Assembly (NCBI GenBank): GCA_036170915.1
Contig: JAVHQC010000001.1
Coordinates: forward strand, 32,001 to 96,000
DNA length: 64,000 bases
From: Cyanobacteria bacterium auto_48_18
GTDB taxonomy: Bacteria; Cyanobacteriota; Vampirovibrionia; Obscuribacterales; Obscuribacteraceae
Direction: 5' to 3'
Made by a program: the position numbers and the translations under genes
Shown here: in pieces, positions 14,668 to 34,391 of the stretch
Layout of the letters: each line of letters begins with the position of its first letter
How positions within the stretch are numbered: position 1 is the first letter of the stretch
Notes under the pieces: model-generated
Databases searched by the model: none
What the model was told of the DNA's origin: nothing
What the model saw: only the letters and a program-made list of their open reading frames with translations

Positions 14668-17600
14668 ATGGCATCCGATCACCCAGCCATACCAGAAACA
14701 CCTGCCGGGCCGGCGGCCGCTCATGGCAAGCCATCGTTCTGGTCAGATCGCGTGCTCTGGATTTTAATCGCGCTTGCCGTGGTCGGTTTCAGCATCTATT
14801 TGAAACTCGACAAAAGAGTTTTCCCCGCGGCTTCCATCGATCTCAAGTACAGCCGCGAGCAAATTGCCGTCCAGGCTCGCGAGTATGCCAAGCGCTTTGG
14901 TTACGAACAAGCGCGACCGATTGAGTCCACAACATTCACCTTTTTTAACGAGAGCAAAACCTTCCTCGAATACGAACTGGGCCTAGACGAAGCCAATCGT
15001 CTAATGCGCGAGAAAATTCCCGTTTGGGCCTGGACCACCAGATTTTGCCAGCAGTATCAACTAGAGCAATTTAGAGTCTGGATTTCACCGCAAGGAAAGC
15101 TCATAGCATTTTCTCGCACCATTGAAGATGAGCGGCCAATGCCTACAATTTCTCACGCGGATGCCCTGGCACAAGCGCAGGCTTTCTTGCAAAAAGATGT
15201 GCAGGCTCCGCTTGCGCATTTGAAACTTGTGCGTGATGAAACCACTACCAAAGCTCATCGCGATGATCACTCATTTACTTGGGAAGATGTCAGCCAAGAC
15301 TATAAAGACGCAAAAATGCGTTATTTCATTGCTTTTTCCGGCAACAAGTTAACCGCTTATTCTTCTTTCCTATCCATTCCCGATAAATGGACGCGCATGT
15401 ACGCCAAGATGCGCTCCATGAACGATTTGCTGCAGAGTATAGCCAGTATTTTTTATGGCACTTTGCAGACACTCGCCGTACTGGTTGTGCCCTGGGCCCT
15501 GACGCGCAAGCTGATGCGCTGGCGCTTTGCCATTTTTGGTGGGCTGGTCACCGCTCTGGTTGGCGCCTTTGATTCGGTGAACGATTACGCTTCGGTGATT
15601 GATAGTTACAGCCCCACCAGCTCTTTTCGCGACTATTTGTTCTCTTATTATTTCCGTCAAGCTATAGCGTCGTTGAGCTCATTTGTCTCAGGTGCGCTCT
15701 TGTTTGGCGGCGCTGATGTGATTTATCGCTTGAGCTACCCCAAGCGCATTGCCCTCGAAAATTATTTGACCTTCAAAGGATTCGCCAGCCGCGAAGGCCG
15801 CAAAGCAGTGCTGATTGGCTACTGTGTTTTTGCCGTGCACTTAGGCTGGATTATCGCTTACTACATGATTGGCGAAAAACTCAAGTTCTGGTGCCCGCTT
15901 GGAGTTGACGACTATCAGCTGATGGGCAGCGCTTTGCCTTTCTTCTCAGCCATTTCTTTGGGTATTCATGCTGCTACTCAAGAAGAAACCATCGCTCGAG
16001 TTGTAGCCCTCAGTCTGGTGGAGAAACTAACAGGCCGCTTCTGGCTGGCCAACCTTTTTCAAGCGGCGTCCTGGGGCTTCATGCATAGCTCGTATCCGCA
16101 GCAACCTGCTTACGCGCGGGGCGTAGAGCTGACCATTGGTGGTCTATTTTATGGCTACATAATGCGCCGCTACGGGCTTTTGCCTTGTTTCATCGGTCAC
16201 TATTTGGTCGACGCTTTTTTAACCGTCAAACCGATTTTTTCTGCTTCCAGCCCGTGGCTTAATTTGTCTGGTTTCATACCAATAGTGCCTTTTGCCATTA
16301 TTACCGTGGCCTCAATCTTGTATGACCGCTTCAAAAAAGCCCCATCACCAGCAGCCGCTCCACACCAAACTCATGACGAAGACCTGTTTAACGACGCTTT
16401 GCCCGTTCACCCTGTAGAGATTAAACCGCTTGAGGGCGAAGTCGAGGCTTATACTTACCAGCCTTTCAAGCAAAAGCTGCGCGTGATTTTAGCTGTGGTC
16501 GGCATTGTCGGAATATGTTTTTCATTCTGCACGAGCACGCCTTTGCCCGGCGACAAAAGCAGAGTGACCATTGACCGCAACCACGCTATCAGTCGTGCTA
16601 AAGAAATACTGGCGAAAAACGGCATCGACCCCAGTTCTTATCGAGAAGTAGCGTCGCTGGTGACCAATATTTCTAGCGAAGAAATGCAATACATTTTTGA
16701 AAAAGAAAAACTGACGCGCACACTGGAGCTGGCCAGTAAGACCCAGCCGGGCTACATCTGGTCAGTGCGCTTTTTCAAAATTATGGATTCTACCGAGTAT
16801 AAAGTGGAACTGTATGGCGACGGCCGCGAATATTCTTTTGATATCACTGAAGATGAAGACGCGCCTGGTGGCACGATTGATAAAGCGGCAGCAGAAAAAA
16901 TCGCTCTGGCTTATGTGAAAAGAGTGCACCCTGAATACAAAGATGTGGTGCTCGATAAATGTTCGTGGGACAAACGCAAGAACCGCACAGATTATGACGT
17001 TGCTTGCCTGGTACCGTCGCTTAAAGTGGGCGATGCTGACTACAAAATTTCATTGCAAGTTGTTGGCGCGCTGCCATGCAATTTTTCACAAGCCTGGCAA
17101 ATTCCCGAACAGTGGTCGCTTGATCGCTCAAAGCAGACACGCAAAGATGCGGTTCTATCAAGCGTGCGATCGGTGGCCTATTTCATCATGGGTGCCTTTG
17201 GCCTCTGGTGGGGCATTGGCATTTTGCGCTCAGGCACCATTCGTTGGCGGCCTGCAGTTTTGATCGCTATAATTTGCGGCCTGTTAATGGTGCCTGAAGA
17301 ATTCAACCACTGGCCTGTACTCTGGAATAGCTACGAAACTTCCGTACCTGAAACCACTTTCTTACTCAGCCAGGTGCTACAGCTGATTACAAGCTGCTCA
17401 AGTAAAGTGGTTTCTACCTTTATATCAATTGCGCTGGCTTTAGCGGTCTACAAATTGATGTCGCCCAAGCTCAATGCTCTCACCATTGTCAAAGCGGCTT
17501 TCAGACCAAGCGGAGTGGCTCCACGTCTGGCCCAGCAGCAAATGTGGCTTGACGGCATTCTGGTGGCACTGGCCTGGGCCGCTGTGACTCAGACTAAAGA

Positions 17601-18195
17601 TTCCATTCTTGATTTTATGCTGCACTGGTTCTCGCCTGAGGTGCGCACAGCTTCACTGGGTAGTCTCGCAAGCCTGACCGATTATGTTTTCCCGGTGGCT
17701 TCAGATCTGCTTGATTTGCTGCCGTCGCTGGTGGGCGCCATCACCATGGCGCTGCTCATGGCTGGCCTCTACAACAAATATTTCCCGCGCTTTGGTCTGT
17801 TTTTGATTTTTGTTTTTGTTATGAACATGATCAAATACAGCTACGCCAGACACTGGCAAGACTTTGTCATTAACTTGATTGCTGACACGATTCAACAAAT
17901 TATTTTCTGGTTCTTTGTGGCTAAGCTGGCTAAGTTCAATCCGGTGGCTTACCTGGTAAAAGTGATGATTGATGATTCGCTGCCGCTTATTTATGTCATC
18001 TGGATTTTCGGCTGGCCTTGTTTTGCCCCCACATTTTTCTCACTGATAATTTACGTGCTCTCGCCACTGCTGTTGCTGGCCTACTACCGCGCTCGCAACG
18101 TGCGGCTACTGGCCTCGCTATCAGGTGAGCCCGTTGCCGAATCGATCATCTCAGCTGATACTACGGCTGGGGAACCGGGGGGCGAAAGTCCTTAA
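14668..18195 (+). CDS. Large CPBP (Abi/CAAX-type) intramembrane glutamic metalloprotease, internally duplicated
   Basis: 1175 aa. CPBP motifs EETIAR, WGFMH and GHYLVD. Two similar extracytoplasmic domains, each followed by a TM bundle. Confidence 0.8.
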   Translation: MASDHPAIPETPAGPAAAHGKPSFWSDRVLWILIALAVVGFSIYLKLDKRVFPAASIDLKYSREQIAVQAREYAKRFGYEQARPIESTTFTFFNESKTFLEYELGLDEANRLMREKIPVWAWTTRFCQQYQLEQFRVWISPQGKLIAFSRTIEDERPMPTISHADALAQAQAFLQKDVQAPLAHLKLVRDETTTKAHRDDHSFTWEDVSQDYKDAKMRYFIAFSGNKLTAYSSFLSIPDKWTRMYAKMRSMNDLLQSIASIFYGTLQTLAVLVVPWALTRKLMRWRFAIFGGLVTALVGAFDSVNDYASVIDSYSPTSSFRDYLFSYYFRQAIASLSSFVSGALLFGGADVIYRLSYPKRIALENYLTFKGFASREGRKAVLIGYCVFAVHLGWIIAYYMIGEKLKFWCPLGVDDYQLMGSALPFFSAISLGIHAATQEETIARVVALSLVEKLTGRFWLANLFQAASWGFMHSSYPQQPAYARGVELTIGGLFYGYIMRRYGLLPCFIGHYLVDAFLTVKPIFSASSPWLNLSGFIPIVPFAIITVASILYDRFKKAPSPAAAPHQTHDEDLFNDALPVHPVEIKPLEGEVEAYTYQPFKQKLRVILAVVGIVGICFSFCTSTPLPGDKSRVTIDRNHAISRAKEILAKNGIDPSSYREVASLVTNISSEEMQYIFEKEKLTRTLELASKTQPGYIWSVRFFKIMDSTEYKVELYGDGREYSFDITEDEDAPGGTIDKAAAEKIALAYVKRVHPEYKDVVLDKCSWDKRKNRTDYDVACLVPSLKVGDADYKISLQVVGALPCNFSQAWQIPEQWSLDRSKQTRKDAVLSSVRSVAYFIMGAFGLWWGIGILRSGTIRWRPAVLIAIICGLLMVPEEFNHWPVLWNSYETSVPETTFLLSQVLQLITSCSSKVVSTFISIALALAVYKLMSPKLNALTIVKAAFRPSGVAPRLAQQQMWLDGILVALAWAAVTQTKDSILDFMLHWFSPEVRTASLGSLASLTDYVFPVASDLLDLLPSLVGAITMALLMAGLYNKYFPRFGLFLIFVFVMNMIKYSYARHWQDFVINLIADTIQQIIFWFFVAKLAKFNPVAYLVKVMIDDSLPLIYVIWIFGWPCFAPTFFSLIIYVLSPLLLLAYYRARNVRLLASLSGEPVAESIISADTTAGEPGGESP

Positions 18196-19090
18196 GCGCT
18201 AAATCATGTTTAGCACCGTCTTTGTCTGTGACCACTAAGACCGGCTCAGAGACTACGAAATGGAAAACCGTAAATGGTTGCCTGTGATCTTTGCGCACCA
18301 TATGCAATCGCAAAAGTGCGCTTTTAAGATGAGGAAGTTTGGCAGCTACATCAGTCTCAGGCATGATCGAGCCGTCAGCCAGGCGCACGGAGCCTGCGTC
18401 TTTAGGCGTTTGATAGCGGGCTACGTCGCTGCCGTAAAAGAGTTCCTTTTCAAGTTTATTTTGATCAGGTTTTTGCTGGTCTGGTTTAGTACTCTCTTGT
18501 GTTTGCGCTTGTGTTTTCGCTTTTTCAGCTTCAGCCCGATTGACTAAAATTTTCACCTGCTCGGGCTGGTCGGTGACGCCTTTTGCTAAGCCTGGACGCA
18601 GGCGCAGAGTCAGGGCCTTCCAGGCTTCATGGTCTGGATCTTTGAGAAAATCATCCAATTGCCCCTGGCTGATTTCGTAACCGTAGGCCATGTCGAGGGG
18701 CAAAAACAGCGGCTCGTAGCCACGGTTGAAATGCATTGGCACATCGACTTCAAAATCTTCGGGCTGGTCAAGAGCGGTGGTGGCTTGAGCCTCGCCTTTC
18801 ATTTTTTTGTAGGTAATCGGCCCAAATTCAAAAGGCTGGCCCACTAAAAAGGAGAGGTTGGGTTCTTCACCCGAACTATATATAAGGTAAGAAACCCAGC
18901 CCAGTTTTGCCGGGCAGCGGCAAATGTTGCCGCCAAAGGCCTCTACGGCTTTGGCATATTCGCCGTTCTGTACATGTTTTACAAACTTTCGCGCATTATT
19001 TGTGGGGTCACCAGGCTTGTCACCGGCAAAGACCTGAAATAAGACAATGGCAAAACATAACAGTAAAAATATGGGAAGCAATAACCTCAT
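18161..19090 (-). CDS. Exported hypothetical protein
   Basis: 309 aa ORF with an N-terminal hydrophobic signal/anchor, a CRC motif and short KPDQ repeats. Confidence 0.6.
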   Translation of the reverse strand: MRLLLPIFLLLCFAIVLFQVFAGDKPGDPTNNARKFVKHVQNGEYAKAVEAFGGNICRCPAKLGWVSYLIYSSGEEPNLSFLVGQPFEFGPITYKKMKGEAQATTALDQPEDFEVDVPMHFNRGYEPLFLPLDMAYGYEISQGQLDDFLKDPDHEAWKALTLRLRPGLAKGVTDQPEQVKILVNRAEAEKAKTQAQTQESTKPDQQKPDQNKLEKELFYGSDVARYQTPKDAGSVRLADGSIMPETDVAAKLPHLKSALLRLHMVRKDHRQPFTVFHFVVSEPVLVVTDKDGAKHDLALKDFRPPVPQP

Positions 19091-19158
19091 TACCTGAGTG
19101 TAACTTGGATTTGGCTGTGATACTATCCCGGTTTCTATCTCGTCAATGGGGCAATAGT

Positions 19159-20637
19159 ATGGACCTTCTTGGAAACGCCGGCATGTTGGCTAAAAATCTC
19201 ACGCCACTGCTGCTTGGTTTAACCATTTTCGTCTTTCTTTTTGACCTCTTGCGCGGGCGCACCTGGTCAACCCTTGAGCCCAACAAAGTATCTTCGCAAA
19301 TAAAGCCCCTGGCCATCACTGCCCTTAGTGGTGCCATGATGCTCTTTATTTGTTCGCTGACCGGTCTGGTTTTAGAAAATGTGGCACCATATTATCTAGG
19401 CGGCATGTTGATTACTTATGTGCTGGCAACTTTGGCGCTTAAGCCGGCCATGCGCATGATGTTGCAACTTGCTTGTGCTGTGGCTTTGACCATGTTTGTG
19501 CCCAGCGAAAATTTAGAGCTGGCCGCCGCCGCTTATTTATTTGGTGCTTTAGCTATTCGCCTGGTTTTGAATTTTCTCAAGCCTAAAGAATCGCGTCTTG
19601 ATGATATTGCTCCGCCTTTTGTCTACCTGGCAGGCGCCATGTTTGTGCGTTGCGGCGCCACCGGATCTGGCACCACTGCTCTGACGCAAATGGCCATGAT
19701 CAATAGCGCTTTTATTATTGCTACTTTGATGACGCTCATGCAAAGACCGTTTATGCGTGACGACAAAATCTTGGTCAAGCGGCTTGTGTTGACACTTTCA
19801 GCTGGCCTGGCCTACCTCGTTATGGTGACTAAAGCTGTAGGCGCACCTGAGTATGCACGCATGGCCGCACTGGTGGGTGTGGGTTATGGTATGGCTTACG
19901 CCCTTGACGCGCTGGCCATCAAAAAAGATTGTGCTACTGGCGCGGTCAAACAAATTTTGATCATCGGCATCTTTAGTTTGCTGGCCGCTAAACTTTACGG
20001 TAACCTCGGCCTTACTTGTCTGGCAGCCGGTTGTATGGTGGGAAATTTTAGTCAAATTCCCGCTGCCGCAGCTTTATATTTTGGTGCCAGGGTGTTAGAG
20101 CAAGTCTTTGCTTACACCAATGTATCTAACGTCACCGGCATTAACCTCAATCACCCTTCAGTCAGTGCCGCAGTTTATCTCGGATTGTTTTCCGCTCTTG
20201 GTCTATCGGCTCTGCTAAAAGATGTGAGCGACCGCCGCATACTGGCAGCAGCTGCTGCTATTGCCGCAGCTTTCGGCACCTGTGCCGTTAGCTATCTATT
20301 GCACAGCGAAGCGGCGGGCGGATATCTAATTAGCTTGATCATCTCAGGAGTGATGGTTTCAATCATCGGTCAAAGTTTCTTCCCTGAAGAAGAAGAAAAA
20401 GCTGTCAACCTGGCTATTGTGCCGGCTTTAGCTACATCGTGCGCTGTTGTTTCGGCTTCGCTTTTAGCAGCTGGTGTCAGTGCCACCATAGAGCAACGCT
20501 TCACCGTACTTGGGGTCATGGCTGGTGCCGCTGTGCTGGCGTTGGTGGCAGTCTATTTAAAGAATCGCGGCAGCCAGGCCAGTAACGATAAGACTAATGG
20601 CGACTCAGGGCAACCGGTAGTTGTCGCGGGAGACTAA
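19159..20637 (+). CDS. Polytopic membrane protein of unknown function
   Basis: From ATG 19159 (MDLLGNAG...) the protein is an almost uninterrupted series of hydrophobic helices. The upstream part of the called ORF overlaps the divergent gene. Confidence 0.7.
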   Translation: MDLLGNAGMLAKNLTPLLLGLTIFVFLFDLLRGRTWSTLEPNKVSSQIKPLAITALSGAMMLFICSLTGLVLENVAPYYLGGMLITYVLATLALKPAMRMMLQLACAVALTMFVPSENLELAAAAYLFGALAIRLVLNFLKPKESRLDDIAPPFVYLAGAMFVRCGATGSGTTALTQMAMINSAFIIATLMTLMQRPFMRDDKILVKRLVLTLSAGLAYLVMVTKAVGAPEYARMAALVGVGYGMAYALDALAIKKDCATGAVKQILIIGIFSLLAAKLYGNLGLTCLAAGCMVGNFSQIPAAAALYFGARVLEQVFAYTNVSNVTGINLNHPSVSAAVYLGLFSALGLSALLKDVSDRRILAAAAAIAAAFGTCAVSYLLHSEAAGGYLISLIISGVMVSIIGQSFFPEEEEKAVNLAIVPALATSCAVVSASLLAAGVSATIEQRFTVLGVMAGAAVLALVAVYLKNRGSQASNDKTNGDSGQPVVVAGD

Positions 20638-21375
20638 GTCAGACTGACCGGCTTTAGAAGAGCCGGCTTTAAAAGATTCAGCTTTAAAAGATTCGGCTTT
20701 AAAAGTGCCAGCTTTTGTCGACTGGTCTAAATAGACTTCGACCAATAAATTGCGGCCATCAAATGCCAGTTCGCGCCTCCGCAATTTTCGGCTCTGAGCT
20801 TCATTGTGCATCTGGTCGGTGCCGTAGATTGCCACCACTAAATTGTCTGGGCCACTAGATGTGGTGCAGCGAATTTGCACAGGCTGTTTGTAAGGGTTAG
20901 TCAGTTTCAGATCGGCCTGGCCATACCAGACGGTGGCATCGAGTCCAGGAGGCACTGAGCCAACACAGGTTGTGTGAGCCGCCCGTTCTTTGATCTTAAG
21001 ACCAGAGAGCAGGGCTGTCTGGTAGAGGCAAGAAGAAATTAGACAGATGCCACCACCAGCGCTGGCAACAGATTTACCGCTGACATAGCTTGGTGCGGGC
21101 ACAAAACCGCGACTGCCTGTGCGCGCGCCGACGCGGTTATTGAACGAAAAAGTCTGCCCAGGGTTAATGACGCATCCATCAAGAGACCTGGCGGCGGTGA
21201 TGAAATTGAGTCTTTGCTCACGTGAATAGTGGCTGAGCGAAACCGAGCGGTGAGCCAGTTCACTTTTAAATGGATGGTCAACCAGATAATAAGTTAGCAA
21301 AATCACTGGCAGCGTAAAAAGAGCCAGAGTCATCAGGGGGATTTTGTTTAAAATCGGCGTTTTGATCATATTCAT
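20605..21375 (-). CDS. VanW family protein
   Basis: R.LNF..AA..LDG.VI.PGQTFSFN..VG, GGGICLISSCLYQ, ER.AH and PPGLDATV..G..DLKL.NP. Confidence 0.9.
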   Translation of the reverse strand: MNMIKTPILNKIPLMTLALFTLPVILLTYYLVDHPFKSELAHRSVSLSHYSREQRLNFITAARSLDGCVINPGQTFSFNNRVGARTGSRGFVPAPSYVSGKSVASAGGGICLISSCLYQTALLSGLKIKERAAHTTCVGSVPPGLDATVWYGQADLKLTNPYKQPVQIRCTTSSGPDNLVVAIYGTDQMHNEAQSRKLRRRELAFDGRNLLVEVYLDQSTKAGTFKAESFKAESFKAGSSKAGQSDLVSRDNYRLP

Positions 21376-21399
21376 GACATTCTGGCCCTATTCACTAAC

Positions 21400-24300
21400 T
21401 TATTCAGTGACATTGAGTCTGTCCACGTTAGAGAATCCTTTGATGTTTTTGGTGTACATACCAGCCAACATAGCCGGATTCACATTGACGCGACCAGGCA
21501 ATTCCATACGCAAGAGAGTGGTGAATTCTGATTTGCCTTCTCTCAAGTTGGTTCCGAAATAAACAATCTTGTCGTCGAGCACATCCTGGTGCGTCCACCA
21601 TGGTCTGCCCCAGTCGCCATCGATAGTGGTAGAGGCTGTGTCTTCTTGTACGGCGTTAGCCTGGTCATGGCTTTCCACTACTTCAGCCCCGGAAGGCAAA
21701 GCGGCTTCAACGATTACATAAGGCAGTGCTCGTGGCGTATCTACCATTACTTTCATCAAAATCGTTTCACCGGCTTTGATTGAGCTGCCGTTTAGTGGTT
21801 CAGCCTTGAGCTTAATTACACCACTGCTGGTGTCGGCAATCGACCTGAGATGATAGAACTGGCGCTCTACTTTCATATCGTCAGGCAGGTTGGCCACACC
21901 GGTGGCTCCGGCATCTGTCAAAGTTTTGTAGTAGCTTGTAGTTACTGCCCAATACAATCTGCCTTCGCCTCCGCGTGTCAGTTTGAGATTTTCTTGGGCA
22001 ACCGGCAAGGTCATGGTCTTACCGGCAGTCAGTCTGTCGGCAGGAGTGAAAGTGAGATCACCGATGTTTTTACTTTCGCCACCACTAGCAGTAAGCAAAG
22101 CTGCCAGGGTGAAATCAGAAAGTTTGCCAGCGGTGGACAGCGAGGCTTCAGCATTAAGTTCGTCAGCCAGCAGTGCTTTGAAGACTTGAGCAGTAGCTTT
22201 GGTAGAGCCCCAGCCATGCCCACCCCGCTGCAATAGCAGCCAGGCTTTAACTCGCTCAATTTTGTTGCTGTCGTTAGGGCTTAACTCGAGCACCGCAGTC
22301 AGTGCCAGAGCCGTAGTCTCTTCAGGAGTGAAGCGGTACGAATAAACCCACTGTTTTTGACCGAGCTTGGCGGCCATAGCCTTGGTGTGGTCCCAGTCGA
22401 TAGTGGTATCAGTAGTATTGGCAATCACCATTAAGCGATTGAAAACACGCTGAGCAGCATCATCTTTGTGGGCCAGCTTAAGGGCACGACACAAGTAGCT
22501 CAATGCTTCCGGCCCAAGAACGCTTTGATTTTTCTCCAGGTACGCAACGGCAGCTTCATGCTCTTTTGGCAGCTTCTGTTGCCAGAGAGCCTGGGTGTAG
22601 ACCATATAAGCGAGATCGGTGCGACCCTCATTATCAAACCAGTCGTTGAGCATGTGTTTAGGATCGCTTAGTTGGCCGGTGAGACTTTTCACAGCATTGG
22701 TCTGCCATGAAAGACCTTTTTTCACCATCTCATCGCTAACCGGATAGCCCACACCTTTGACCAGTTTAAGACCATCCAAGACCAGGGCGGTCAAATAAGG
22801 ATTAGTCTGGTCGCCTGCCCACCAGCCCCATCCACCGTCAGATTGCTGATACTCATTGAGTTTGGCAATGCCGATTTTATAAACTTTGGCAAATTTGGTC
22901 TGGTCAGTGGCACTGAGTGGTGCACTGAGCTTTTTGTTCAATTCGATTGCCACTACAGACGGCATCAAGCGCGACATTGTCTGCTCAGTGCATCCGTAGG
23001 GGTAATCAATTAAATCGGCAAAATTGTTCAGTACCGCGCCGATTGTAGAAGACGACAGATTGAGCGAGCGGCTCGCAGTGCCCGCCGCAGCGTCGGTAAT
23101 GGCAGGAAGAGTGAGGTCGGCCACACTTTCATCTTTGAGCAAACCTGATTGAACAACGGTGACAGGAATACCGAGAGCGTTCACCGCTATTTCTCTTTCT
23201 AATGCGTCAGCAGCTGTCTGACCTTTTGCCACCAGTTTAATTTTGGCTTTACCGAGTTGCTTAGCGCTAATGGGCCAGTCAAAGCGAGCAGCTTTTTCAG
23301 GTTCGATGGTGAGCATCTGTTTCAGTGGTGTTTCAGTGCTCAGCTGGTCACCCATGGTCAAGTTGAGGTCAACTTTTTGTGACTGATTAGTGTAGTTGTG
23401 CACCACTGCCGACACCATACCCTGGTCGCCCAGGCTGAAGAAGCGGGGCAGTGCCAATCTGGCAATAATGTCTTGAGTGACCATTACTTTTTCGATGGTG
23501 GCGCCCACATTAGTTTTCATATCGATACCGCGCAAAGTGGCACGCCAGGTGGTGAGGTTATCTGGCAATTTGACAATTGCTTTGGCCTCGCCTTTTTCAT
23601 TGGTGAGCAGTTCAGGCACCCATGCGGCGGTATCGCGGAAGTCTTTTCTCACTTTGGGCTCTAACTTGTCTGGGCCGCCGGAATATTGTTCAGGGAATGA
23701 ACATACGGTGGTGACCCAGTTAGGCAGCCGCTGGTAGAAGAATTTTTTGATGTCTGCGGCGGTTTCAGCGCGAATAGAATAAATGCTTTCGTCTACCACA
23801 CCAAGCGAAAGTTCAACGTCTTTCACCGGTTTACCCAGCTGATTAACAGCCTTGATGGTATAGGTAGCATTCTCGCCCGGTTTATATTTTTCTTTGTCAG
23901 AAGCAATGGTCAAGTTGAGGAAATGGCTCTCTGGGCTGACCATCACCACTTGTTCTTGATTGTAGAACTGTTTATTTTTCGCCACCAGTGAAACGGTAAC
24001 GTAGAAGTTCGGTGTGTAAGCATCTGTCACTGGAATTTCTATCAACTGCGCAGCAGAAGTTAGAGGCACGGTTTTAAAGCTGTGCAATTTGGTGCCTTCG
24101 ATGCTGACAATGGCTTCCGCTCCATCAGTGCCGGTGAATGGACCGGTAATAATGAGCTTAGCTTTGTCGCCTGGTTTATAAACACGCTTGTCGAGTTTTA
24201 GTTTAAGCGGTTCTTTTTTTGCGTCTGAGGCCGCCAGCATAAATGGCCTGCTTCCACTGGCCACCCATATAGAGCTCGCATCTTGCACTTTGTGGCCGCC

Positions 24301-26448
24301 TTTATCTACGGCTTGAGCAATGATGTAATAGCTGTCTGAAGCCCATTTAGACTTTGTCTCTAAATCAAGATGCACGTCACCTTTTTCATTGGTGGTGGCA
24401 GTTTTTTCTTCAAGGGTTTCGGCGGGGCGATATTCATATTTAAAGCGGTCATAGGGATACCGCATCAATTTCACAGAAAGCGCTGTGCTGACAGGTTTTC
24501 CTTGATAGTCGACGGCCTTAATATCGACGCCCATGGTCTGGCCTGTGGTGACAACATAATTTGTTGGTGTCACTGCTAGCAAAAAGTCGCCGGCGGTTTC
24601 AGTGAGCGAGCCGCTGCCCACAACCGATAGCCTGCTGATGTCAGTGACTTCAGCTTCGACTTTGAGTTTTTTGTCGGCGTATTCGCTGCCGGGAGGGCCA
24701 GCAGTAACTCCTGGAGCTGTGGTGTCAAATTCTACAATCGCTTCGCCATTAGCATCGGTAACGGCGAAACCTTCCGCGCTGAAATCACCGGCGCCTTCAT
24801 AATAGTCGGCGTCATACCAGTCGTCGAAGAAGCTAAAGTATTCTGGTCTATCGGTTAAACGCCAGCGTGTATTCCAGTCGGTTGATGAATAGACGTTATA
24901 TTTCACTCTGGCATTGGCCACAGGCCCGCCGAAGAAATAAGTGGCTCGTACTCTGGCTTTGCCTTTCTCGCCAGCAATGACGCGCTCGGTAATGGGCAAT
25001 ACTTCGACTTGATATTCGGGTTTGCGATATTGCGCAATTTCAAAGCCTTGATAGCTGGTGGTGCCATCAGCATATTTGACTTGCACCTGATAGCCGCCGG
25101 TTTTGCCATCGGCCGGTACTTCAACCAGGCCATGGAAAGTGCCATGAGCATTGGTTTTTACTTTGAAACTCTTGAGCTGATTATTGTCTGGATCTTCAAT
25201 TGAAATATCTAGTTCTTCATTGGCACCAGGATTGTTGATACCATTTTCATCAACTGCACGGCACATGCCTTTGAAATAAACTGTCTGCCCGAGGCGGTAA
25301 ACAGGTCTGTCGGTATAGAAATAAGTTTTGTGCGTGTCGCTGTCAGAGCGATAATAGCTAAAGCCGCTATATGCCTTGTTTGCGCCCATGGTGCCAAGTA
25401 GCACCAGATCATAGCTGAGGCGATCGCGAACATCTTTTGCCAGCACCAAACTGGCCATGCCATCAGCACCGGTTGTGGCATTGATTTTGCTATTAAGATC
25501 TATTTCTCCGTTGCTTCTTTGATAAATATTGAGATCAACGCCGGGCATTCCTTTTAGTGTATTTAAATTGACTGCCTTCACGAGCGTTTTATCTGGTGCG
25601 TGCTTGATGATTAAGCCCACGTCGCTGATTGAAAACCAGGTGAGAGCTTTAGCTGTGCTGCGACCAAACATATCTGTGACGCGGGCTACGGCAAAATAAT
25701 CACCTGCCGGCAGTGGTCCATCCATTTTGAATTGAGCTGAAGACGAATCACTGTCGTCCATGGTCAAGTCGCGTTTAAAGCTGTGTACAGGCTTGTCGTG
25801 TTCAAATGGGCTGACAAATTTTTTCGACGAATCAACATAAATGCTGAAGTCTGATGAAAGCGACATGCCGGTTGTTTTTGACTGTTTCATCAAGCTAAGA
25901 AAATCTTTTTTGTAGATTTTCACATCAGCGCTAACTGCACCAGTGGCGTTGATCCAAAAATGTGGTGCCTCTTTGGTGGTGAAAACTCTGGTGTTGGATG
26001 CGATGTTGACGGTGGGATTGAGCAAAGACAATTCCACTGTTTTGGGAAGAGTCTGAGGTGGCCCCTGGGCCACGAATAAATTGTTGACGATGGCGGTAGA
26101 AAATCCGGGAGCACGGGCGCGCAAACTATATTCGCCCACCGGCAATTGTTCAATTTTAAAAGTGCCGTCTTTGTTCACCCAGGCGCCTCTTTCCACTGAT
26201 GGACCTGAGCGCGGGCCGTTGACAAGTACAAAAACTTTATTCTGTTTCAGATCGTAAGTCTTGAGGTTAAAGCCTTTTTCTTCGAGAGCAATTTGCCCTG
26301 AAATCGAGCCCATAGGTTTGTCGAGCATCACAGCCGCCATGGCCAAAATCACTACCTGCAAACCGACAAATATCCAGGTGGCCAGCGGTGTGCGCCTGCC
26401 CTGGTTCTGCGATGAGAATTGCAAAGACCTGATTTCACCTGAAGACAT
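21400..26448 (-). CDS. Bacterial alpha-2-macroglobulin (MG2-domain) protein with an intact thioester motif
   Basis: 1682 aa. YTDRPVYRLGQTV, VRKDFRDTAAW, LPDNLTTWR, YPYGCTEQ (CxEQ at 22981-22992), QQSDGGWGWW and WGSTKAT. N-terminal TM anchor. Confidence 0.93.
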   Translation of the reverse strand: MSSGEIRSLQFSSQNQGRRTPLATWIFVGLQVVILAMAAVMLDKPMGSISGQIALEEKGFNLKTYDLKQNKVFVLVNGPRSGPSVERGAWVNKDGTFKIEQLPVGEYSLRARAPGFSTAIVNNLFVAQGPPQTLPKTVELSLLNPTVNIASNTRVFTTKEAPHFWINATGAVSADVKIYKKDFLSLMKQSKTTGMSLSSDFSIYVDSSKKFVSPFEHDKPVHSFKRDLTMDDSDSSSAQFKMDGPLPAGDYFAVARVTDMFGRSTAKALTWFSISDVGLIIKHAPDKTLVKAVNLNTLKGMPGVDLNIYQRSNGEIDLNSKINATTGADGMASLVLAKDVRDRLSYDLVLLGTMGANKAYSGFSYYRSDSDTHKTYFYTDRPVYRLGQTVYFKGMCRAVDENGINNPGANEELDISIEDPDNNQLKSFKVKTNAHGTFHGLVEVPADGKTGGYQVQVKYADGTTSYQGFEIAQYRKPEYQVEVLPITERVIAGEKGKARVRATYFFGGPVANARVKYNVYSSTDWNTRWRLTDRPEYFSFFDDWYDADYYEGAGDFSAEGFAVTDANGEAIVEFDTTAPGVTAGPPGSEYADKKLKVEAEVTDISRLSVVGSGSLTETAGDFLLAVTPTNYVVTTGQTMGVDIKAVDYQGKPVSTALSVKLMRYPYDRFKYEYRPAETLEEKTATTNEKGDVHLDLETKSKWASDSYYIIAQAVDKGGHKVQDASSIWVASGSRPFMLAASDAKKEPLKLKLDKRVYKPGDKAKLIITGPFTGTDGAEAIVSIEGTKLHSFKTVPLTSAAQLIEIPVTDAYTPNFYVTVSLVAKNKQFYNQEQVVMVSPESHFLNLTIASDKEKYKPGENATYTIKAVNQLGKPVKDVELSLGVVDESIYSIRAETAADIKKFFYQRLPNWVTTVCSFPEQYSGGPDKLEPKVRKDFRDTAAWVPELLTNEKGEAKAIVKLPDNLTTWRATLRGIDMKTNVGATIEKVMVTQDIIARLALPRFFSLGDQGMVSAVVHNYTNQSQKVDLNLTMGDQLSTETPLKQMLTIEPEKAARFDWPISAKQLGKAKIKLVAKGQTAADALEREIAVNALGIPVTVVQSGLLKDESVADLTLPAITDAAAGTASRSLNLSSSTIGAVLNNFADLIDYPYGCTEQTMSRLMPSVVAIELNKKLSAPLSATDQTKFAKVYKIGIAKLNEYQQSDGGWGWWAGDQTNPYLTALVLDGLKLVKGVGYPVSDEMVKKGLSWQTNAVKSLTGQLSDPKHMLNDWFDNEGRTDLAYMVYTQALWQQKLPKEHEAAVAYLEKNQSVLGPEALSYLCRALKLAHKDDAAQRVFNRLMVIANTTDTTIDWDHTKAMAAKLGQKQWVYSYRFTPEETTALALTAVLELSPNDSNKIERVKAWLLLQRGGHGWGSTKATAQVFKALLADELNAEASLSTAGKLSDFTLAALLTASGGESKNIGDLTFTPADRLTAGKTMTLPVAQENLKLTRGGEGRLYWAVTTSYYKTLTDAGATGVANLPDDMKVERQFYHLRSIADTSSGVIKLKAEPLNGSSIKAGETILMKVMVDTPRALPYVIVEAALPSGAEVVESHDQANAVQEDTASTTIDGDWGRPWWTHQDVLDDKIVYFGTNLREGKSEFTTLLRMELPGRVNVNPAMLAGMYTKNIKGFSNVDRLNVTE

Positions 26449-27031
26449 GGGCTTTTATCCTATACATCTGGCACTGTTCAGTTGGGGTTATACCAGCTTT
26501 GACTTTGCACTGCATCACTTGATAATGGGCGTCGCTGGCCTCGCCAGGTAGCAGCACCGCAGCCTTTCCGCCACTTCTGACCATGAGCCCGTCGAGCATG
26601 GGGTGCAAACTGACGTTGCGCTCCACTGGTTCTATTTGGTCAATGACGGTCACCTGCGTTTTCAACTCGGGTAATTCTTGTTTCTTAATTGGTGGGAATC
26701 GATACTCTTTGGTTAACGCGTTCTCAGTAGTAAAAATGGTGGCCGCCACCAAATTTCTTTCAGTGCCGCTAATCTGCCCCCAACAGGCGCGGGTTTTGCC
26801 ATGTTTGCTCAGTGTCACGAACAATCCTTTTGAATGCATATAAGAAGGATGGATATTTTTGCTCATAGCCTCCACAAGATTGCTCATACTTTTAGGATGG
26901 TCGCTGAAGTGATTGGCTACGGTGGTTTTTGCCACTTCCACCAGGGTGAGCGTTTTTTCGCTTTTCCCCAGCGCCGCAGCATTGAGACCCGCTGCCAGAG
27001 TAAGCGTCAATAAAAAAAGGCGTTGATGCAC
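26435..27031 (-). CDS. AMMECR1-domain (AmmeMemoRadiSam protein A-like) protein with a signal peptide
   Basis: GLFVTLSKHGKTRACWG (cf. LRGCIG), EYRFPPI...EL..L, DGLMVRSGGK.AVLLP and KAGI. Hydrophobic leader MHQRLFLLTLTLAAGLNAAALG. Stop overlaps the A2M start. Confidence 0.8.
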   Translation of the reverse strand: MHQRLFLLTLTLAAGLNAAALGKSEKTLTLVEVAKTTVANHFSDHPKSMSNLVEAMSKNIHPSYMHSKGLFVTLSKHGKTRACWGQISGTERNLVAATIFTTENALTKEYRFPPIKKQELPELKTQVTVIDQIEPVERNVSLHPMLDGLMVRSGGKAAVLLPGEASDAHYQVMQCKVKAGITPTEQCQMYRIKAHVFR

Positions 27032-27179
27032 GCGTACCAGACCTCGTGAGGTGTACCGCTTTCTTATACTTCACCTATTATCGACCGTTGCTTCCAAATC
27101 GTCGCCCATGATGTGTCAGAATTGCATGAGCTAGAGGTCAAATGGTTGTCAACTGCGTGTAAGTTGAGACTGAAAAATC

Positions 27180-28094
27180 ATGCCTGATATTGATAGACGT
27201 GGATTCATTCGCTCGCTGTTTGGTATTACCGGCGCGCTGCCGGTCGCCCAGCAAATGGCACACGCTCGCACCCAGGTTTCGTTTTTCTGGTGCAATCTAA
27301 ACAACGGTCAGGTAGGCTTTCCTACTGGTTTAGTAGTTCCAAAAGAACGCCCGGGCTCAATCATGAAGCTCGTTGCCGCCGCGGCCTTGATTGACGAAGG
27401 TTTGTACTCTGGCAATGAAAAATATGAATGCACAGGCACATATACAGTGGGAAAAGAAGCGGTGCATTGTCAAAATGCCCACGGGAGAATTGATTTAACC
27501 CAGGCGATTGGAAAATCTTGCAATATATTTTTCGCTCAGGCGACCAAACATTTAACTGCTCGTGGTTTTTTAGATAAGGCCAAGCAGTTTGCTCTCGATA
27601 AACCTTGTGCAGGTACGCCTTCTGGAGCATTTCCGGCTGAACCAACGCAGACGGCTTCGCTGCATTACGTGCTGGGCCTGGCACCAGATTTAACACCATC
27701 AGCATTGCAGTTGATGCGCCTGGCTGCTCTTGTTGGTATCGCCCCTGGTGCCACGCTTGCCCCTTTGCACTCGGCTGAAAATTTAGATATGAAAGCAAAA
27801 GAACCGCTTTTTACCTCACCACTTACGGCGCAGTCGCATAAAGTTCTGGCAGAGGGCATGCGCCTTTCGGCTACATCTGGAACAGCAAAGAAAATAGATG
27901 TGGACGACAAGCTCAAGGTGGCAGCTAAGACCGGCACCACCCCACATGGTAATAAATTTCAATCTTATGTAGTTGGTTATTTTCCTTACGATAAACCAGC
28001 TCACGCATTTGTGCTTTTCGCGCCTTCAGGCACTTCGCAAGATTCAGCGGTGCCTAAAGCGCGAGATTTTCTTATGTCGACTACCTGGCCTTAG
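27180..28094 (+). CDS. Stand-alone penicillin-binding transpeptidase domain protein with a Tat-like leader
   Basis: PGSIMK (SxxK), SCN (SxN) and KTGT motifs. N-terminal IDRRGFIRSL twin-arginine signal. No dimerisation domain. Confidence 0.85.
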   Translation: MPDIDRRGFIRSLFGITGALPVAQQMAHARTQVSFFWCNLNNGQVGFPTGLVVPKERPGSIMKLVAAAALIDEGLYSGNEKYECTGTYTVGKEAVHCQNAHGRIDLTQAIGKSCNIFFAQATKHLTARGFLDKAKQFALDKPCAGTPSGAFPAEPTQTASLHYVLGLAPDLTPSALQLMRLAALVGIAPGATLAPLHSAENLDMKAKEPLFTSPLTAQSHKVLAEGMRLSATSGTAKKIDVDDKLKVAAKTGTTPHGNKFQSYVVGYFPYDKPAHAFVLFAPSGTSQDSAVPKARDFLMSTTWP

Positions 28095-28098
28095 TTTC

Positions 28099-29232
28099 GT
28101 GGAAGTATGGCGTTCTAGCAGATGGCCTTGTTTAGCTTTTCTTTTTGTGGCAATCACCTTGCGTTCGCCTGCCGCTGAAGCCTTGCCTGCTGAAGTGCAT
28201 GTTAATTTATTTCAGGCTAATCACGAGCTCTCTAGACTAGCTATTGACGGACCTCACAGTTTTGACTCTGTACACGGAAACCATAGCGAGCTTTTTGTCA
28301 ACCGAAACAGCGTGGCATCAAAAGACCGGCAGGGCTTGCGCGTCTATGGCGGTCGCTGCGTGATTCGCCCAGATGGTGGGCCTCTGCTTTTATCTGACGG
28401 CAACAAAAAACGACATTATCGTGGACGCTTTGTTATCACAGTTGATCGCGGTAAATTGCGCGTGGTCAATATTGTGGACAGCAAGTCTTATATTACCAGT
28501 GTTGTTGGTAGTGAGAGCCTGCCTGATTTTCCACTAGAAGCGTTGAAGGCGCAGGCAGTTTTAGCTTCTACTGTTCTGGCAAAACATGCTGGTGTTGTTG
28601 GTGATACCACAGAAATTCAAGCTTACCTTGGCAGCGAGTACGAGCGCCCTCTGGCAAAACAAGCAACCGATGCGGTGTTTGGCCAAGAACTCAAGAACAA
28701 GAGCGGATTTACTGCCACCGTCTATTATTCGTCGACATGCGCTGGTGGTACTAGCGATGCTCGCGAGATATTTTCTGGAAAGAAGCAAAAAGATGCCAGG
28801 GTAAATCAGGTTACCTGTAATTTCTGCAAAAGTTCACCTTTTTTCAAAAGCCATGAGGTTACTTTGCCTGTGGCTACCGTAAAAGAAAAATTGGGCTATT
28901 TGCCCATTTCTATTGAAAGTTATGATGCGCAGAAGCGCCCACTGCAAGTTAAAGTGCAACGCGCTGACGGACGCAGTTTTCAAATTTCTGGCTACGACGT
29001 CTGGCTGCGAATTGGCCAAAGGCTTGGATGGGATGTCGCACCTGGCATGCGATATAACTTTGCAATCGACAAGCAAAATCAAAATTTTGTTTTGCGCTCA
29101 ACCGGCGCCGGTCACGGAGCAGGTCTTTGCCAGTGGGGTGCTGCAGCAATGGCCCTGAGCGGAAAAACCTACAGAGAAATCCTGAAGTATTATTTCCCTG
29201 ATTGTAGTTGTACGTTAGCGACCGATAAATGA
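28099..29232 (+). CDS. SpoIID/LytB domain lytic transglycosylase-like protein
   Basis: YRG...VN.V....YITSVVGSE, EALKAQAV, DTT..QAYLG, YSSTCAG, G.GHGAGLCQWGA and YREILKYYFP. Likely start GTG 28099 after the upstream stop. Confidence 0.9.
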   Translation: MEVWRSSRWPCLAFLFVAITLRSPAAEALPAEVHVNLFQANHELSRLAIDGPHSFDSVHGNHSELFVNRNSVASKDRQGLRVYGGRCVIRPDGGPLLLSDGNKKRHYRGRFVITVDRGKLRVVNIVDSKSYITSVVGSESLPDFPLEALKAQAVLASTVLAKHAGVVGDTTEIQAYLGSEYERPLAKQATDAVFGQELKNKSGFTATVYYSSTCAGGTSDAREIFSGKKQKDARVNQVTCNFCKSSPFFKSHEVTLPVATVKEKLGYLPISIESYDAQKRPLQVKVQRADGRSFQISGYDVWLRIGQRLGWDVAPGMRYNFAIDKQNQNFVLRSTGAGHGAGLCQWGAAAMALSGKTYREILKYYFPDCSCTLATDK

Positions 29233-29314: not shown

Positions 29315-30697
29315 ATGGATACTTCGGTGGCTATCGTAGCCGTAGGCGCAATCGTATTTTTGGCCCATCTTTTCGCCGTCGGCTTTGAGAAAACGCGCAT
29401 TCCTGATGTATTGCCTCTGGTAATTTTAGGTGTGCTGATTGGCCCGGTTTTTCACTTTGTTAAACCTGACGACTTTGGCCAGGTGGGCCAGGTCTTCACC
29501 ACTCTCGCTCTAGTCATTATCTTGTTCTATTGCGGGCTCGAGCTTGACCTTAATTTGCTGGTGAAATCTTTTTTGCCGGCACTAAAATTGGGTCTGATAA
29601 ATTTCACTGTCACTGTTGCCACTACCGTCTGGTTAGGCATGCAGGCTTTAGGTCTGGGAGCCACAGAAGGGTGCATCTTAGGCTGCATCGCTGCTGCCTG
29701 TTCGCCTCCTGTAGTCATTCCGATGTTGGCAAAGTTGCGCGCCACTGAACAAACGCGCACCATGTTGATTTTAGAGTCGACCATTTGTGAAGTGCTCGGT
29801 ATTGTAGGCACTCTCGCTTTTATCAAAGTGGCCACGCAAAGCTCTGTACAACCGGTGGCAATGCTCGGTCACATTATTGCTTCATTCATCATGGCGGCCA
29901 TTATTGGTCTGGCAGCCGGAGTGCTCTGGTCGAAATTGCTCACTGTGGTGCGTCACGTCGATGACAATATTTTTTGCACCCCGGCATTTGTTTGCATAGT
30001 TTTCGGCACCGCCGAATTGTTTGATTACAGCGGCCCGGTGGCTGCTCTGGTATTCGGTCTGGTACTGGGAAACATCAAAGAGTTGAAGTTCTTGAAGGGG
30101 CTGCGTGGCATCCACGGAGAAGCCGTAACTTTAACCTTGCAAGAAACTACATTTTTTGCCGCACTGGTGTTTTTGCTCAAGTCTTTGTTCTTTGTTTATG
30201 TTGGTCTATCAATGCAGTTCGATTCTGCGCGTCTGGCTGGCGCGGCCTTGATTCTTACTGTCTGGACACTGCTTGTGCGCCTGGTTGTGGTGCGCTTCAC
30301 CACTAGCGATAAGCTTTCCATCTACGACCGCTCACTGGTATCGATAATGGTGCCCAAAGGATTAGCTGCCGCAGTACTGGCATCGTTGGTTTTACAATCG
30401 GGCGTAAATGGTGCCGCCACCATTCGCGAAGTAGCGTTCGGTGTGATTCTCTTCAGTATTGTGCTGGTGGCTTTCCTTGCGTTCTTTCTTGAGCAAGGCT
30501 GGCTTGATGCTTTCTTCACTTATGTGTTTGGTAAAAATGCCCCGCTCAAACCAGACCCTGCTCTGGTTGTCACCGGCACTTTTTCTCACGCGTCGGCTCT
30601 TGAGGCTGCTAGAAAAACTCTGGCTGATACCGAGGCCGGTTTAAAAGTGATCAAAGACGATGGTGCTGTTACGGAACCTTCAGACAGCGGTCATTAG
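29315..30697 (+). CDS. Cation:proton antiporter (CPA1/NhaP-like)
   Basis: About 13 TM helices, with IILFYCGLEL, LILESTICE, FFVYVGL and MVPKGLAAAVLA. Confidence 0.88.
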   Translation: MDTSVAIVAVGAIVFLAHLFAVGFEKTRIPDVLPLVILGVLIGPVFHFVKPDDFGQVGQVFTTLALVIILFYCGLELDLNLLVKSFLPALKLGLINFTVTVATTVWLGMQALGLGATEGCILGCIAAACSPPVVIPMLAKLRATEQTRTMLILESTICEVLGIVGTLAFIKVATQSSVQPVAMLGHIIASFIMAAIIGLAAGVLWSKLLTVVRHVDDNIFCTPAFVCIVFGTAELFDYSGPVAALVFGLVLGNIKELKFLKGLRGIHGEAVTLTLQETTFFAALVFLLKSLFFVYVGLSMQFDSARLAGAALILTVWTLLVRLVVVRFTTSDKLSIYDRSLVSIMVPKGLAAAVLASLVLQSGVNGAATIREVAFGVILFSIVLVAFLAFFLEQGWLDAFFTYVFGKNAPLKPDPALVVTGTFSHASALEAARKTLADTEAGLKVIKDDGAVTEPSDSGH

Positions 30698-33426: not shown

Positions 33427-33446
33427 GTAGGTACAGGAATTGCTAA

Positions 33447-34391
33447 TTGAGCTTTTTAAAGCACAGAAAAAATATTCCACTGCAGATTCTGATCGCCTTT
33501 TCTTTTTGTCATGTTTTTATCGCGACAGCTGCCGCTGCCCCACCGGCAAAACCTTCTGCTGACACTGTTCGAGTCAGCCGCGCCATTGACCTGATTTGCA
33601 CAGGCCATGTGATGGAAGGTCGGCGAATGCTCATACCTTTTTGTCATCGACCTGAAACTACGGCACCAATGTACTTTTATTTGGCACGCAGTTATATCGA
33701 AGATCCTGAGATGGATTCGAAAATGAATAACGAAATCGTGCAAGATTTGAATATGGCAATTAAGCTTGAACCTGACAATGGTGAGTATTACCGCTATATG
33801 GCTAAATATCACAATATTCAAGGCCAGTGGGACGAAGCGTTAAAGTACGCAGAGAAAGCGCTTAAGGCAAAGAAAGTTGATCTTGCAGCATACCGCGAGC
33901 GCAGTGGCACATACGCCAGTTTAGGCCGTTATAACGAGGCTCTGGCGAACATGGATATTTTCATGTCCAAGGTTCCTCCAGGCGAGGGTGCATATTTCAA
34001 TAAAGCGGTAATGCTGCAAGAATTGAAGCGATATGACGAGGCGGCAAAGTTCTATCGCCTATCAATTAGTCTGCGCAATCAAGATCGCACCATCATACAG
34101 TTGTCTCGCTGTCTTGATCTTGCGGGCAAGTATCAAGAAGCAATTGACGAATTGTCTAAGGTGATCAAAACCACTCCACAAGACGACGAATCGCTGGTGA
34201 TGCGAGCACGACTGTATCGTAAAAATAAAAATCCGCAGCTTGCCCTGAACGATTTTACTAAAGCACTAGAAATTGAACCGTCAGCAAAAACCTACACCGA
34301 ACGTGCTGCCGTGTATGCTCAGTTAGGGCAAAAAAGTGCTGAGGCTAAAGATCTGGCTAAAGCAAAAGAAATGCAGAGCATGCCTTTCTGA
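33447..34391 (+). CDS. Exported TPR protein
   Basis: Signal peptide followed by TPR units (AIKLEPDN, AYRERSGTY, ALNDFTKALEIEP). Confidence 0.85.
   Translation: MSFLKHRKNIPLQILIAFSFCHVFIATAAAAPPAKPSADTVRVSRAIDLICTGHVMEGRRMLIPFCHRPETTAPMYFYLARSYIEDPEMDSKMNNEIVQDLNMAIKLEPDNGEYYRYMAKYHNIQGQWDEALKYAEKALKAKKVDLAAYRERSGTYASLGRYNEALANMDIFMSKVPPGEGAYFNKAVMLQELKRYDEAAKFYRLSISLRNQDRTIIQLSRCLDLAGKYQEAIDELSKVIKTTPQDDESLVMRARLYRKNKNPQLALNDFTKALEIEPSAKTYTERAAVYAQLGQKSAEAKDLAKAKEMQSMPF

Follow-up and report, generated by a model that had tools for sequence, protein, structure and literature searches.

A conserved set of cell-envelope genes around a thioester alpha-2-macroglobulin in non-photosynthetic relatives of cyanobacteria

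The gene cluster described here belongs to the uncultured Cyanobacteria bacterium auto_48_18 (Obscuribacteraceae; assembly GCA_036170915.1, 4.9 Mb in 39 contigs, 86% complete). It lies in a stretch of 64,000 nucleotides (contig JAVHQC010000001.1, 32,001–96,000), which is referred to below as the window. Open reading frames (ORFs) and Pfam/NCBIfam profile searches give eight tightly packed features within window positions 18161–29232 (Table 1). The cluster is built around an alpha-2-macroglobulin (A2M), accompanied by a VanW-domain protein, an AMMECR1-domain protein, a transpeptidase domain of the penicillin-binding protein (PBP) fold, a SpoIID/LytB-domain protein and an inner-membrane protein with the predicted fold of membrane pyrophosphatases (M-PPases). 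This gene set is called the cassette below.

The original prediction for this DNA placed AMMECR1, A2M and VanW in one minus-strand unit, and the genes and their spacing agree with it: the 3' end of the AMMECR1 gene overlaps the start of the A2M gene by 14 bp, and a spacer of 24 bp separates A2M from VanW. The divergent region of ~150 bp, described as shared with the transpeptidase–SpoIID pair, measures 148 bp. The polytopic membrane gene does converge on vanW, with a tail-to-tail overlap of 33 bp. The longest ORF of SpoIID starts with TTG at 27973, within the transpeptidase gene; the GTG at 28099, four bases past the transpeptidase stop, is the likelier start. Consensus scans stayed at background level both for promoter-like sequences in the divergent region (15 found, 10.2 ± 2.7 expected) and for terminators (20 found, 14.5 ± 4.3 expected).

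Table 1. Features of the cluster; positions are counted from the first nucleotide of the window.
Feature	Position	Strand	Basis or remark
309-aa membrane-anchored protein, no Pfam family	18161..19090	-	Obscuribacteraceae-lineage neighbour, always divergent from the membrane gene
492-aa inner-membrane protein of ~16 helices, M-PPase-like predicted fold	19159..20637	+	conserved sixth member, judged by homology
VanW-domain protein, N-terminal membrane anchor	20605..21375	-	PF04294, E 2.3e-39, 134 bits
1682-aa A2M, Type I (thioester) by motif and domains, N-terminal transmembrane anchor	21400..26448	-	Pfam
198-aa exported AMMECR1-domain protein	26435..27031	-	PF01871, E 4.5e-27, 95 bits (cut-off 25)
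148-bp spacer between the divergent AMMECR1 and transpeptidase genes	27032..27179		coordinates
304-aa stand-alone transpeptidase (PBP-fold) domain, twin-arginine leader	27180..28094	+	PF00905, E 2.6e-24
377-aa SpoIID/LytB-domain protein, signal peptide	28099..29232	+	PF08486, E 6.3e-14

The A2M contains a TED_complement domain as well as MG2, A2M_BRD, A2M and bMG10 domains, the latter four all above the Pfam cut-offs. In its TED domain (PF07678, E 4.5e-21) the CxEQ thioester motif lies within YPYGCTEQT; the CTEQ had been noted as retained, and C1153, E1155 and Q1156 are invariant in 21/21 aligned orthologues. The N-terminus forms a transmembrane helix and has no lipobox cysteine. Among solved structures, the A2M is most closely related to E. 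coli YfhM/ECAM (4rtd, 5.9e-27) and Salmonella A2M (4u48).

Two genomic contexts of bacterial A2Ms are distinguished in the available part of PMC5764988: Type I comprises a thioester A2M with pbpC, and Type II an A2M without thioester in a six-gene mag/yfa operon. According to the same text, Type I A2Ms are hypothesized to trap invading proteases while PBP1c repairs the wall, and Type II proteins form multi-protein Mag complexes. Judged by its thioester motif and domain series, and not by a pbpC neighbour, the window A2M is of Type I. Pfam finds no GT51 or BiPBP_C domain among the locus proteins, and a search of the 86%-complete genome gave no PF06832 (BiPBP_C, pbpC-type) match.

The E. coli yfhM (ECAM)–pbpC pair and Salmonella Sa-A2M, as described in the available parts of PMC5764988 and PMC4498604, resemble the window locus in a CxEQ A2M of ~1650 aa with bait-region, TED and bMG10 domains, in the inner-membrane tether and in a gene adjoining that of a peptidoglycan cross-linking enzyme. 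Unlike the yfhM product, the window A2M is held by a transmembrane helix rather than as a lipoprotein, and no PBP1C is encoded in the locus; the partners are instead a bare transpeptidase domain, VanW, SpoIID, an exported AMMECR1 and the M-PPase-shaped membrane protein. The P. aeruginosa magABCDEF and E. coli yfaA-yfaT-yfaS-yfaQ-yfaP operons (available parts of PMC5764988 and PMC3735191) are similar in having six genes and an A2M with membrane and periplasmic partners. They also share a SpoIID-like domain: the statement in the original prediction that yfa-type A2Ms are paired with a SpoIID-domain gene holds, because E. coli YfaQ matches PF08486, if weakly, with 27 bits against a cut-off of 23. 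However, these Type II A2Ms have no thioester, whereas the window A2M keeps it, and none of DUF2135, DUF1175, DUF2138 and DUF2300 was found among the window locus proteins. Conversely, no AMMECR1, VanW or PBP-fold protein occurs in the six-gene mag operon, as far as the available text describes it, or in the annotated E. coli yfa operon.

Three further A2M-family genes are present in the source genome on contigs C29, C11 and C31 (ORFs of 2094, 1399 and 1451 aa). Genome-wide tblastn placed none of the VanW, AMMECR1, transpeptidase and SpoIID partners next to these genes.

The transpeptidase was predicted to retain SxxK, SxN and KTG, and the window protein has SIMK, SCN and KTG behind the twin-arginine translocation (Tat) motif RRGFIRS. 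Among the orthologues SxxK is kept in 54/55, KTG in 53/55 and SxN in 46/55. The best solved relatives are the transpeptidase domains of class B PBPs (SpoVD 7rcz, 1.3e-9; PBP2 6pl5), and the Tat leader of the window protein occupies the position of the class B anchor. The description of this protein as a stand-alone Tat transpeptidase is valid for Obscuribacterales, where the Tat motif occurs in 46/46 transpeptidases, but not beyond them, since it is found in 1/9 elsewhere, that one being a truncated ORF. The leaders of the other classes look Sec-type, and a Tat leader, judged by its motif, is an Obscuribacterales-specific feature.

According to the available part of PMC11348318, a 2024 paper, VanW domains function as L,D-transpeptidases that have a Cys-His-Asp triad and form 3-3 cross-links from tetrapeptide donors, and VanW proteins are scarce outside gram-positive bacteria. 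In the cassette family the Cys (GGGIC), His and Asp (LDATV) columns, with the triad mapped by motif, are kept in 52/53 orthologues, the remaining one being truncated. The window VanW is therefore predicted to be an L,D-transpeptidase. The VanW enzymes Ldt4 and Ldt5 of Clostridioides difficile (PMC11348318, available part) likewise have the catalytic domain behind an N-terminal membrane anchor and the same Cys/His/Asp columns. In contrast to them, the window protein lacks accessory domains (PG4, G5, SH3) and is a fixed partner of an A2M whose closest matches are the periplasmic proteins from E. coli and Salmonella. No second VanW gene was found in the source genome by tblastn.

The SpoIID protein scores 114.7 bits on TIGR02669 (cut-off 83.3). 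Its solved relatives are 4rwr (2.4e-12), 5i1t and 5txu, and the window motif VVGSE aligns with VVASE of 4rwr. The Glu of this motif, which we take to be catalytic, is kept in 49/49 orthologues. With the VanW domain being a probable L,D-transpeptidase, the locus would therefore possess two cross-linkers of different chemistry plus SpoIID. Other wall enzymes are encoded elsewhere in the genome: four PF00905 proteins of 628–797 aa (full-length PBPs), two YkuD proteins and one S11 carboxypeptidase. Since the housekeeping wall enzymes are located there, the cassette enzymes are considered accessory.

Such a pair of enzymes could also serve as a bypass under antibiotic or other stress. The PBP-fold protein would then be a D,D-carboxypeptidase producing tetrapeptides, from which VanW would build 3-3 links tolerating beta-lactams or envelope stress, and the A2M would be a separate guard under common regulation. 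This arrangement agrees with the requirement of VanW cross-linking for tetrapeptide donors (PMC11348318, available part), with the link between carboxypeptidase activity and L,D-transpeptidase function (PMC13753750, available part), with the cassette VanW being the only one in the genome and with a PBP-fold protein consisting of the catalytic domain only. Nevertheless, it leaves unexplained the universal, translationally coupled order AMMECR1–A2M–VanW, the two YkuD-type enzymes and the S11 carboxypeptidase are already available to the cell, and the vicinity of VanW contains no PBP-fold gene in one related family (f22). The bypass is accordingly regarded as distinctly unlikely.

Two members of the cassette are puzzling, the exported AMMECR1 and the pyrophosphatase-shaped membrane protein. 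The AMMECR1 protein begins with a hydrophobic N-terminal leader (MHQRLFLLTLTLAAGLNAAA), and its R-x-C-x-G and PGE motifs are kept in 66/66 orthologues. We know of no established function for the AMMECR1 family. The closest named relative is AmmeMemoRadiSam system protein A (TIGR04335), which has the AMMECR1 domain with R-x-C-x-G as well. The window protein differs from it in being exported rather than cytoplasmic and in scoring below the TIGR04335 cut-off (82 bits, cut-off 99). The partners in the window locus are the A2M and the wall enzymes; neither a Memo nor a radical-SAM gene, as in the AmmeMemoRadiSam system, was found there. A second AMMECR1 domain is encoded in the source genome (C6:21936-22382) within an ORF of 509 aa, the long form in relatives being 505–532 aa; presumably this is a cytoplasmic fusion protein.

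The membrane protein has no Pfam match at E<=10, PF03030 included, and its comparison with the source genome's own HppA by hhalign gives a probability of 1.6%. Its fold was assessed by an AlphaFold2 (AF2) model (predicted local distance difference test, pLDDT, 78.5; predicted template modelling score 0.83). The model matches the M-PPase structure 5gpj_A with a VIA Z of 23.9 (root-mean-square deviation 3.7 A over 433 residues, 14% identity) and 8b37_B with Z 23.0 over 417 residues, and the next unrelated row has Z 8.7. In Foldseek the top 24 matches at E<=0.001 are all M-PPases. SEDS, Wzy and flippase identities were considered and rejected: no such Pfam family matches at E<=10, and WzxE and others reach Z<=6 against 23.9.

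The resemblance to membrane pyrophosphatases (HppA, PF03030) concerns the predicted 16-helix fold. M-PPases bind Mg-pyrophosphate by a catalytic set of acidic residues and lysine. A 14-sequence alignment of the membrane protein family has invariant polar residues at R99, R311, Q315, H382 and R447, but Asp and Glu are nowhere invariant or nearly so, and no Lys is shared by the whole family; position 278 is a near-invariant Arg that is Lys in the window protein. Compared with HppA, the window protein is also shorter (492 aa against ~700) and has no sequence-family signature. The loops contain 10 Lys and Arg residues inside against 2 outside, from which an N-out/C-out topology would follow, with the conserved polar residues on the cytoplasmic face. 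Taken with the model, the protein reads as pyrophosphatase-shaped, with the pyrophosphatase chemistry lost or never possessed.

Conservation of the gene set was followed in several collections of genomes, and co-location was counted only for loci whose contig reaches far enough. A search with the AMMECR1 protein over 41 related genomes gave a match in 33, and 20 flanks were mapped with the window proteins by tblastn; A2M comes after AMMECR1 in 19/20, G038 being the exception. The second set, 48 Obscuribacterales loci, was obtained by an AMMECR1-alignment scan of a species-genome collection with a single peptide pattern, which returned only Obscuribacterales-type records; this set overlaps the 20 flanks, and its genomes are kin. 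A2M lies directly downstream of AMMECR1 in 46/46 testable loci, followed by VanW in 38/38, and the transpeptidase is upstream in 43/43 and SpoIID in 37/41. The membrane gene is found somewhere in the locus in 26 of the 48.

A third set was drawn from the whole phylum by an AMMECR1 profile applied to 401 genomes. Among 38 matches at E<=1e-20, 20 loci were fetched, 17 high-scoring ones from classes other than that of the window and three with lower scores. The latter three encode a ~180-aa AMMECR1 of the cytoplasmic type and have no cassette. In the loci of the other classes A2M is adjacent to AMMECR1 in 16/17, VanW comes after A2M in 11/12, and the transpeptidase and SpoIID are upstream in 8/15 and 8/14, respectively. 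The genes stand there on one strand in the order membrane protein, transpeptidase, SpoIID, AMMECR1, A2M and VanW, with spacers near zero, and the A2Ms are 25–30% identical to the window A2M. Thus, within the phylum the cassette is syntenic both in Obscuribacterales relatives and in other classes, in keeping with the original prediction.

The membrane gene follows the set across these classes. The window gene is homologous to a ~485-aa gene that abuts the transpeptidase start in the other-class loci (tblastn E down to 2e-11 in the C-terminal half, together with the alignment mentioned above). It stands at one end of the cluster in Obscuribacterales and at the opposite end in the other classes and, by this homology, is a conserved sixth member, mobile but constant across classes. 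The original proposal of a distinct class of A2M locus has to be amended in this respect, as it had treated the membrane gene as a converging neighbour; its core, a deeply conserved, pbpC-free thioester A2M with SpoIID and a transpeptidase, stands.

A metagenome scan added 63 loci with a guanine–cytosine (GC) content of 0.31–0.70. A2M is adjacent to AMMECR1 in 33/44 testable loci and VanW follows in 18/22; the transpeptidase is upstream in 29/38 and SpoIID in 24/30. In two short contigs VanW precedes AMMECR1. An apparent SpoIID–AMMECR1 fusion in one genome (G117, ORF of 515 aa) was rejected, the genes being in different frames at a high-GC locus. The AMMECR1 clusters of a protein Atlas are mostly labelled Melainabacteria, with one labelled Thermodesulfobacteriota, which serves as a lead only. 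A tblastn search of plasmids with AMMECR1 returned only a cytoplasmic amrB gene on one Segatella plasmid.

In the 401-genome sample, the Photo_RC family served as the marker of phototrophy and identifies 164 genomes as phototrophs. The cassette occurs in 0/164 of them and is present in the non-photosynthetic relatives of cyanobacteria; the carrying families contain no phototrophs (f10 0/8, f19 0/1, f22 0/8, f24 0/10, f36 0/1). A high-scoring AMMECR1 occurs in a single phototroph (G308), without the rest of the cassette. Within the phylum sample the cassette is thus restricted to non-photosynthetic lineages. In family f6, which belongs to the window's own class, no AMMECR1 match was found in the 169 small genomes searched.

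Some loci have genes inserted into the set. In a family relative (G023, L045:10150-11541) a 463-aa Peptidase_M23 gene lies between A2M and VanW, which fits the same theme of wall remodelling. The machinery could be devoted to endogenous wall morphogenesis. Rather than defend against foreign proteases, the A2M would then restrain or scaffold peptidoglycan hydrolases of the cell itself while the cell grows, divides or differentiates, and the machine would consist of SpoIID, the two cross-linkers and the membrane protein. Engulfment and cortex synthesis are the processes for which SpoIID and SpoVD-like domains are best known. Besides the M23 endopeptidase, this idea is favoured by the occurrence of the cluster in large free-living genomes and its absence from the small f6 genomes searched. 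It is opposed by the thioester and bait-region domains, intact in 21/21 aligned orthologues, which point to covalent protease capture, and by the housekeeping PBPs encoded elsewhere. We regard such a role in morphogenesis as unlikely.

The close succession of A2M and VanW admits one more interpretation. The two genes overlap by 4 bp in one locus (L110), are separated by tens of bases to ~270 bp in most others and are interrupted by inserted genes in a few. VanW could attach the A2M or another envelope protein covalently to peptidoglycan, with no cross-linking of glycan strands. An attachment of this kind is performed by YkuD enzymes in E. coli, which join Braun lipoprotein to peptidoglycan. 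The constant position of VanW directly after A2M, apart from the loci with insertions, would be explained in this way. Yet no acceptor motif was identified in support of anchoring, and the A2M is already anchored in the membrane. In addition, the VanW activities given in the available part of PMC11348318 are only cross-linking and carboxypeptidase. Anchoring is thus considered quite improbable.

Several observations weigh against the cassette as a fixed functional unit of active enzymes. In five loci of family f22 the AMMECR1–A2M–VanW genes have a flank without transpeptidase or SpoIID. Three metagenome loci (L184, L186, L187) present the opposite case, transpeptidase–SpoIID–AMMECR1 with no A2M after AMMECR1: neither A2M nor VanW was found in the 10 kb downstream of AMMECR1 in L186 and L187, and no A2M in the ~1.5 kb of contig left after AMMECR1 in L184. 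In a class relative (G038, L044:9295-10609) an exported AMMECR1 stands beside an SLH-domain gene, with no A2M on the 12.9-kb contig. Eight other-class transpeptidase orthologues have SCS instead of SxN. The transpeptidase also possesses no class B N-terminal anchor or pedestal, and its Pfam and PDB matches cover the catalytic domain only. Finally, the counts given above overstate independence because the relatives are kin. From the partial sets it follows that the gene set is modular and not obligate, with AMMECR1 as the one member that both halves share. The L186 and L187 loci, each with its three genes on one strand, have a GC content of 0.68, and their downstream ORFs look unrelated, one resembling 6-phosphogluconate dehydrogenase by eye.

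Kinship raises the question of whether these genes are merely neighbours without a shared function, their order being inherited within one lineage. Most of the examined loci do belong to one phylum, and gene order is shared among kin. However, the set is divergent in Obscuribacterales and collinear elsewhere, and the membrane gene switches cluster ends yet stays. The set also persists across contigs with the GC range given above. Its retention through the inversion of the transpeptidase–SpoIID arm and the relocation of the membrane gene, at an A2M identity of 25–30%, is hard to reconcile with mere inherited order. The linkage of the set, which recurs in relatives whose A2M identity falls to 25–35%, is more than chance, and an inherited order without common function appears extremely improbable.

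Of the genes flanking the cassette, that of the 309-aa neighbour is lineage-specific. The neighbour has no Pfam or NCBIfam match even at E<=10 and is syntenic in family f1 loci. Its AF2 model (pLDDT 71.2) has its best fold matches among NTF2-like proteins, which are weak and generic (Z 8.6–7). At Z ~8 they include the NTF2 domains of the L,D-carboxypeptidases Csd6, Pgp2 and Bd1075, this fold being generic. The invariant residues of the protein include a CxC motif. On its far side lies a gene for a 1175-aa polytopic protein (14668-18195, plus strand) with DUF4901 (YcdB/YcdC repeat) and a CPBP/Rce1-like intramembrane protease domain. The end of this gene overlaps the 309-aa gene tail to tail, and it is syntenic in same-genus loci. 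Beyond SpoIID, a Na+/H+ exchanger gene (29315-30697, plus strand) precedes that of a class I/II aminotransferase. It is found in the closest relatives only; in other same-genus loci no match was found between SpoIID and the aminotransferase, several of these loci retaining uncovered gaps. Downstream of the aminotransferase, two TPR-repeat proteins (476 and 314 aa) are encoded in succession (31996-34391, plus strand).

The gene set, its conservation and the retained catalytic motifs are the observations from which the activities, the physical association of the proteins and the logic of 'trap and mend' are inferred. The reading we favour, with moderate confidence, is a conserved envelope module around a Type I A2M, in which a protease trap is combined with accessory wall remodelling. 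This mechanism is an extension of the Type I trap-and-repair hypothesis presented in the available part of PMC5764988. Most likely, a periplasmic protease would cut the bait region of the inner-membrane A2M and become covalently bound via the Cys-Gln thioester, as in ECAM and Salmonella A2M. The role of pbpC, the E. coli partner, could be taken by the three accessory wall enzymes. The PBP-fold protein would act as a soluble exported D,D-transpeptidase or D,D-carboxypeptidase, supplying or using peptide stems. VanW would be a membrane-anchored L,D-transpeptidase making 3-3 links, and SpoIID would cleave or grip glycan strands. Together these enzymes could trim, open and re-crosslink damaged peptidoglycan. 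The 3-3 cross-links need tetrapeptide donors, for which carboxypeptidase activity of the PBP-fold protein is a possible supply. Non-enzymatic or regulatory roles may fall to the membrane protein and to AMMECR1, the latter being translationally coupled to the A2M.

A bolder version of the module can be imagined, in which the six proteins form one trans-envelope repair machine triggered by damage. Cleavage of the bait would be relayed via AMMECR1 and the catalytically dead membrane protein to local glycan cutting and to 4-3 and 3-3 re-crosslinking. We assign only a small chance to such a machine. If true, bacterial A2M systems would include a third, widespread class, and AMMECR1, a family extending to humans, would have its first biochemical role.

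The combination was predicted to be undescribed, and no paper joining these families was found in the searched literature, whose coverage leaves out most subscription journals. In this literature, macroglobulin together with AMMECR1 occurs only in human-gene lists, macroglobulin with SpoIID only in an unrelated proteome table, and macroglobulin with VanW (as whole words) gave no match. The cassette is therefore apparently a third genomic context for a Type I bacterial A2M, not previously described in print. The form present in the window is that with an unfused, divergently arranged and Tat-exported transpeptidase domain.

The periplasmic 'immune and repair' role of A2M is still a hypothesis in the literature. 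In the third context PBP1C would be replaced by two separate cross-linkers and a glycan-cleaving enzyme, which gives independent support to a connection of protease trapping with the maintenance of the wall. The cassette also places probable VanW L,D-transpeptidases in bacteria that appear to have a periplasm, their outer membrane being inferred. Finally, the exported AMMECR1 and the pyrophosphatase-shaped membrane protein, both orphans, gain a concrete set of partners.

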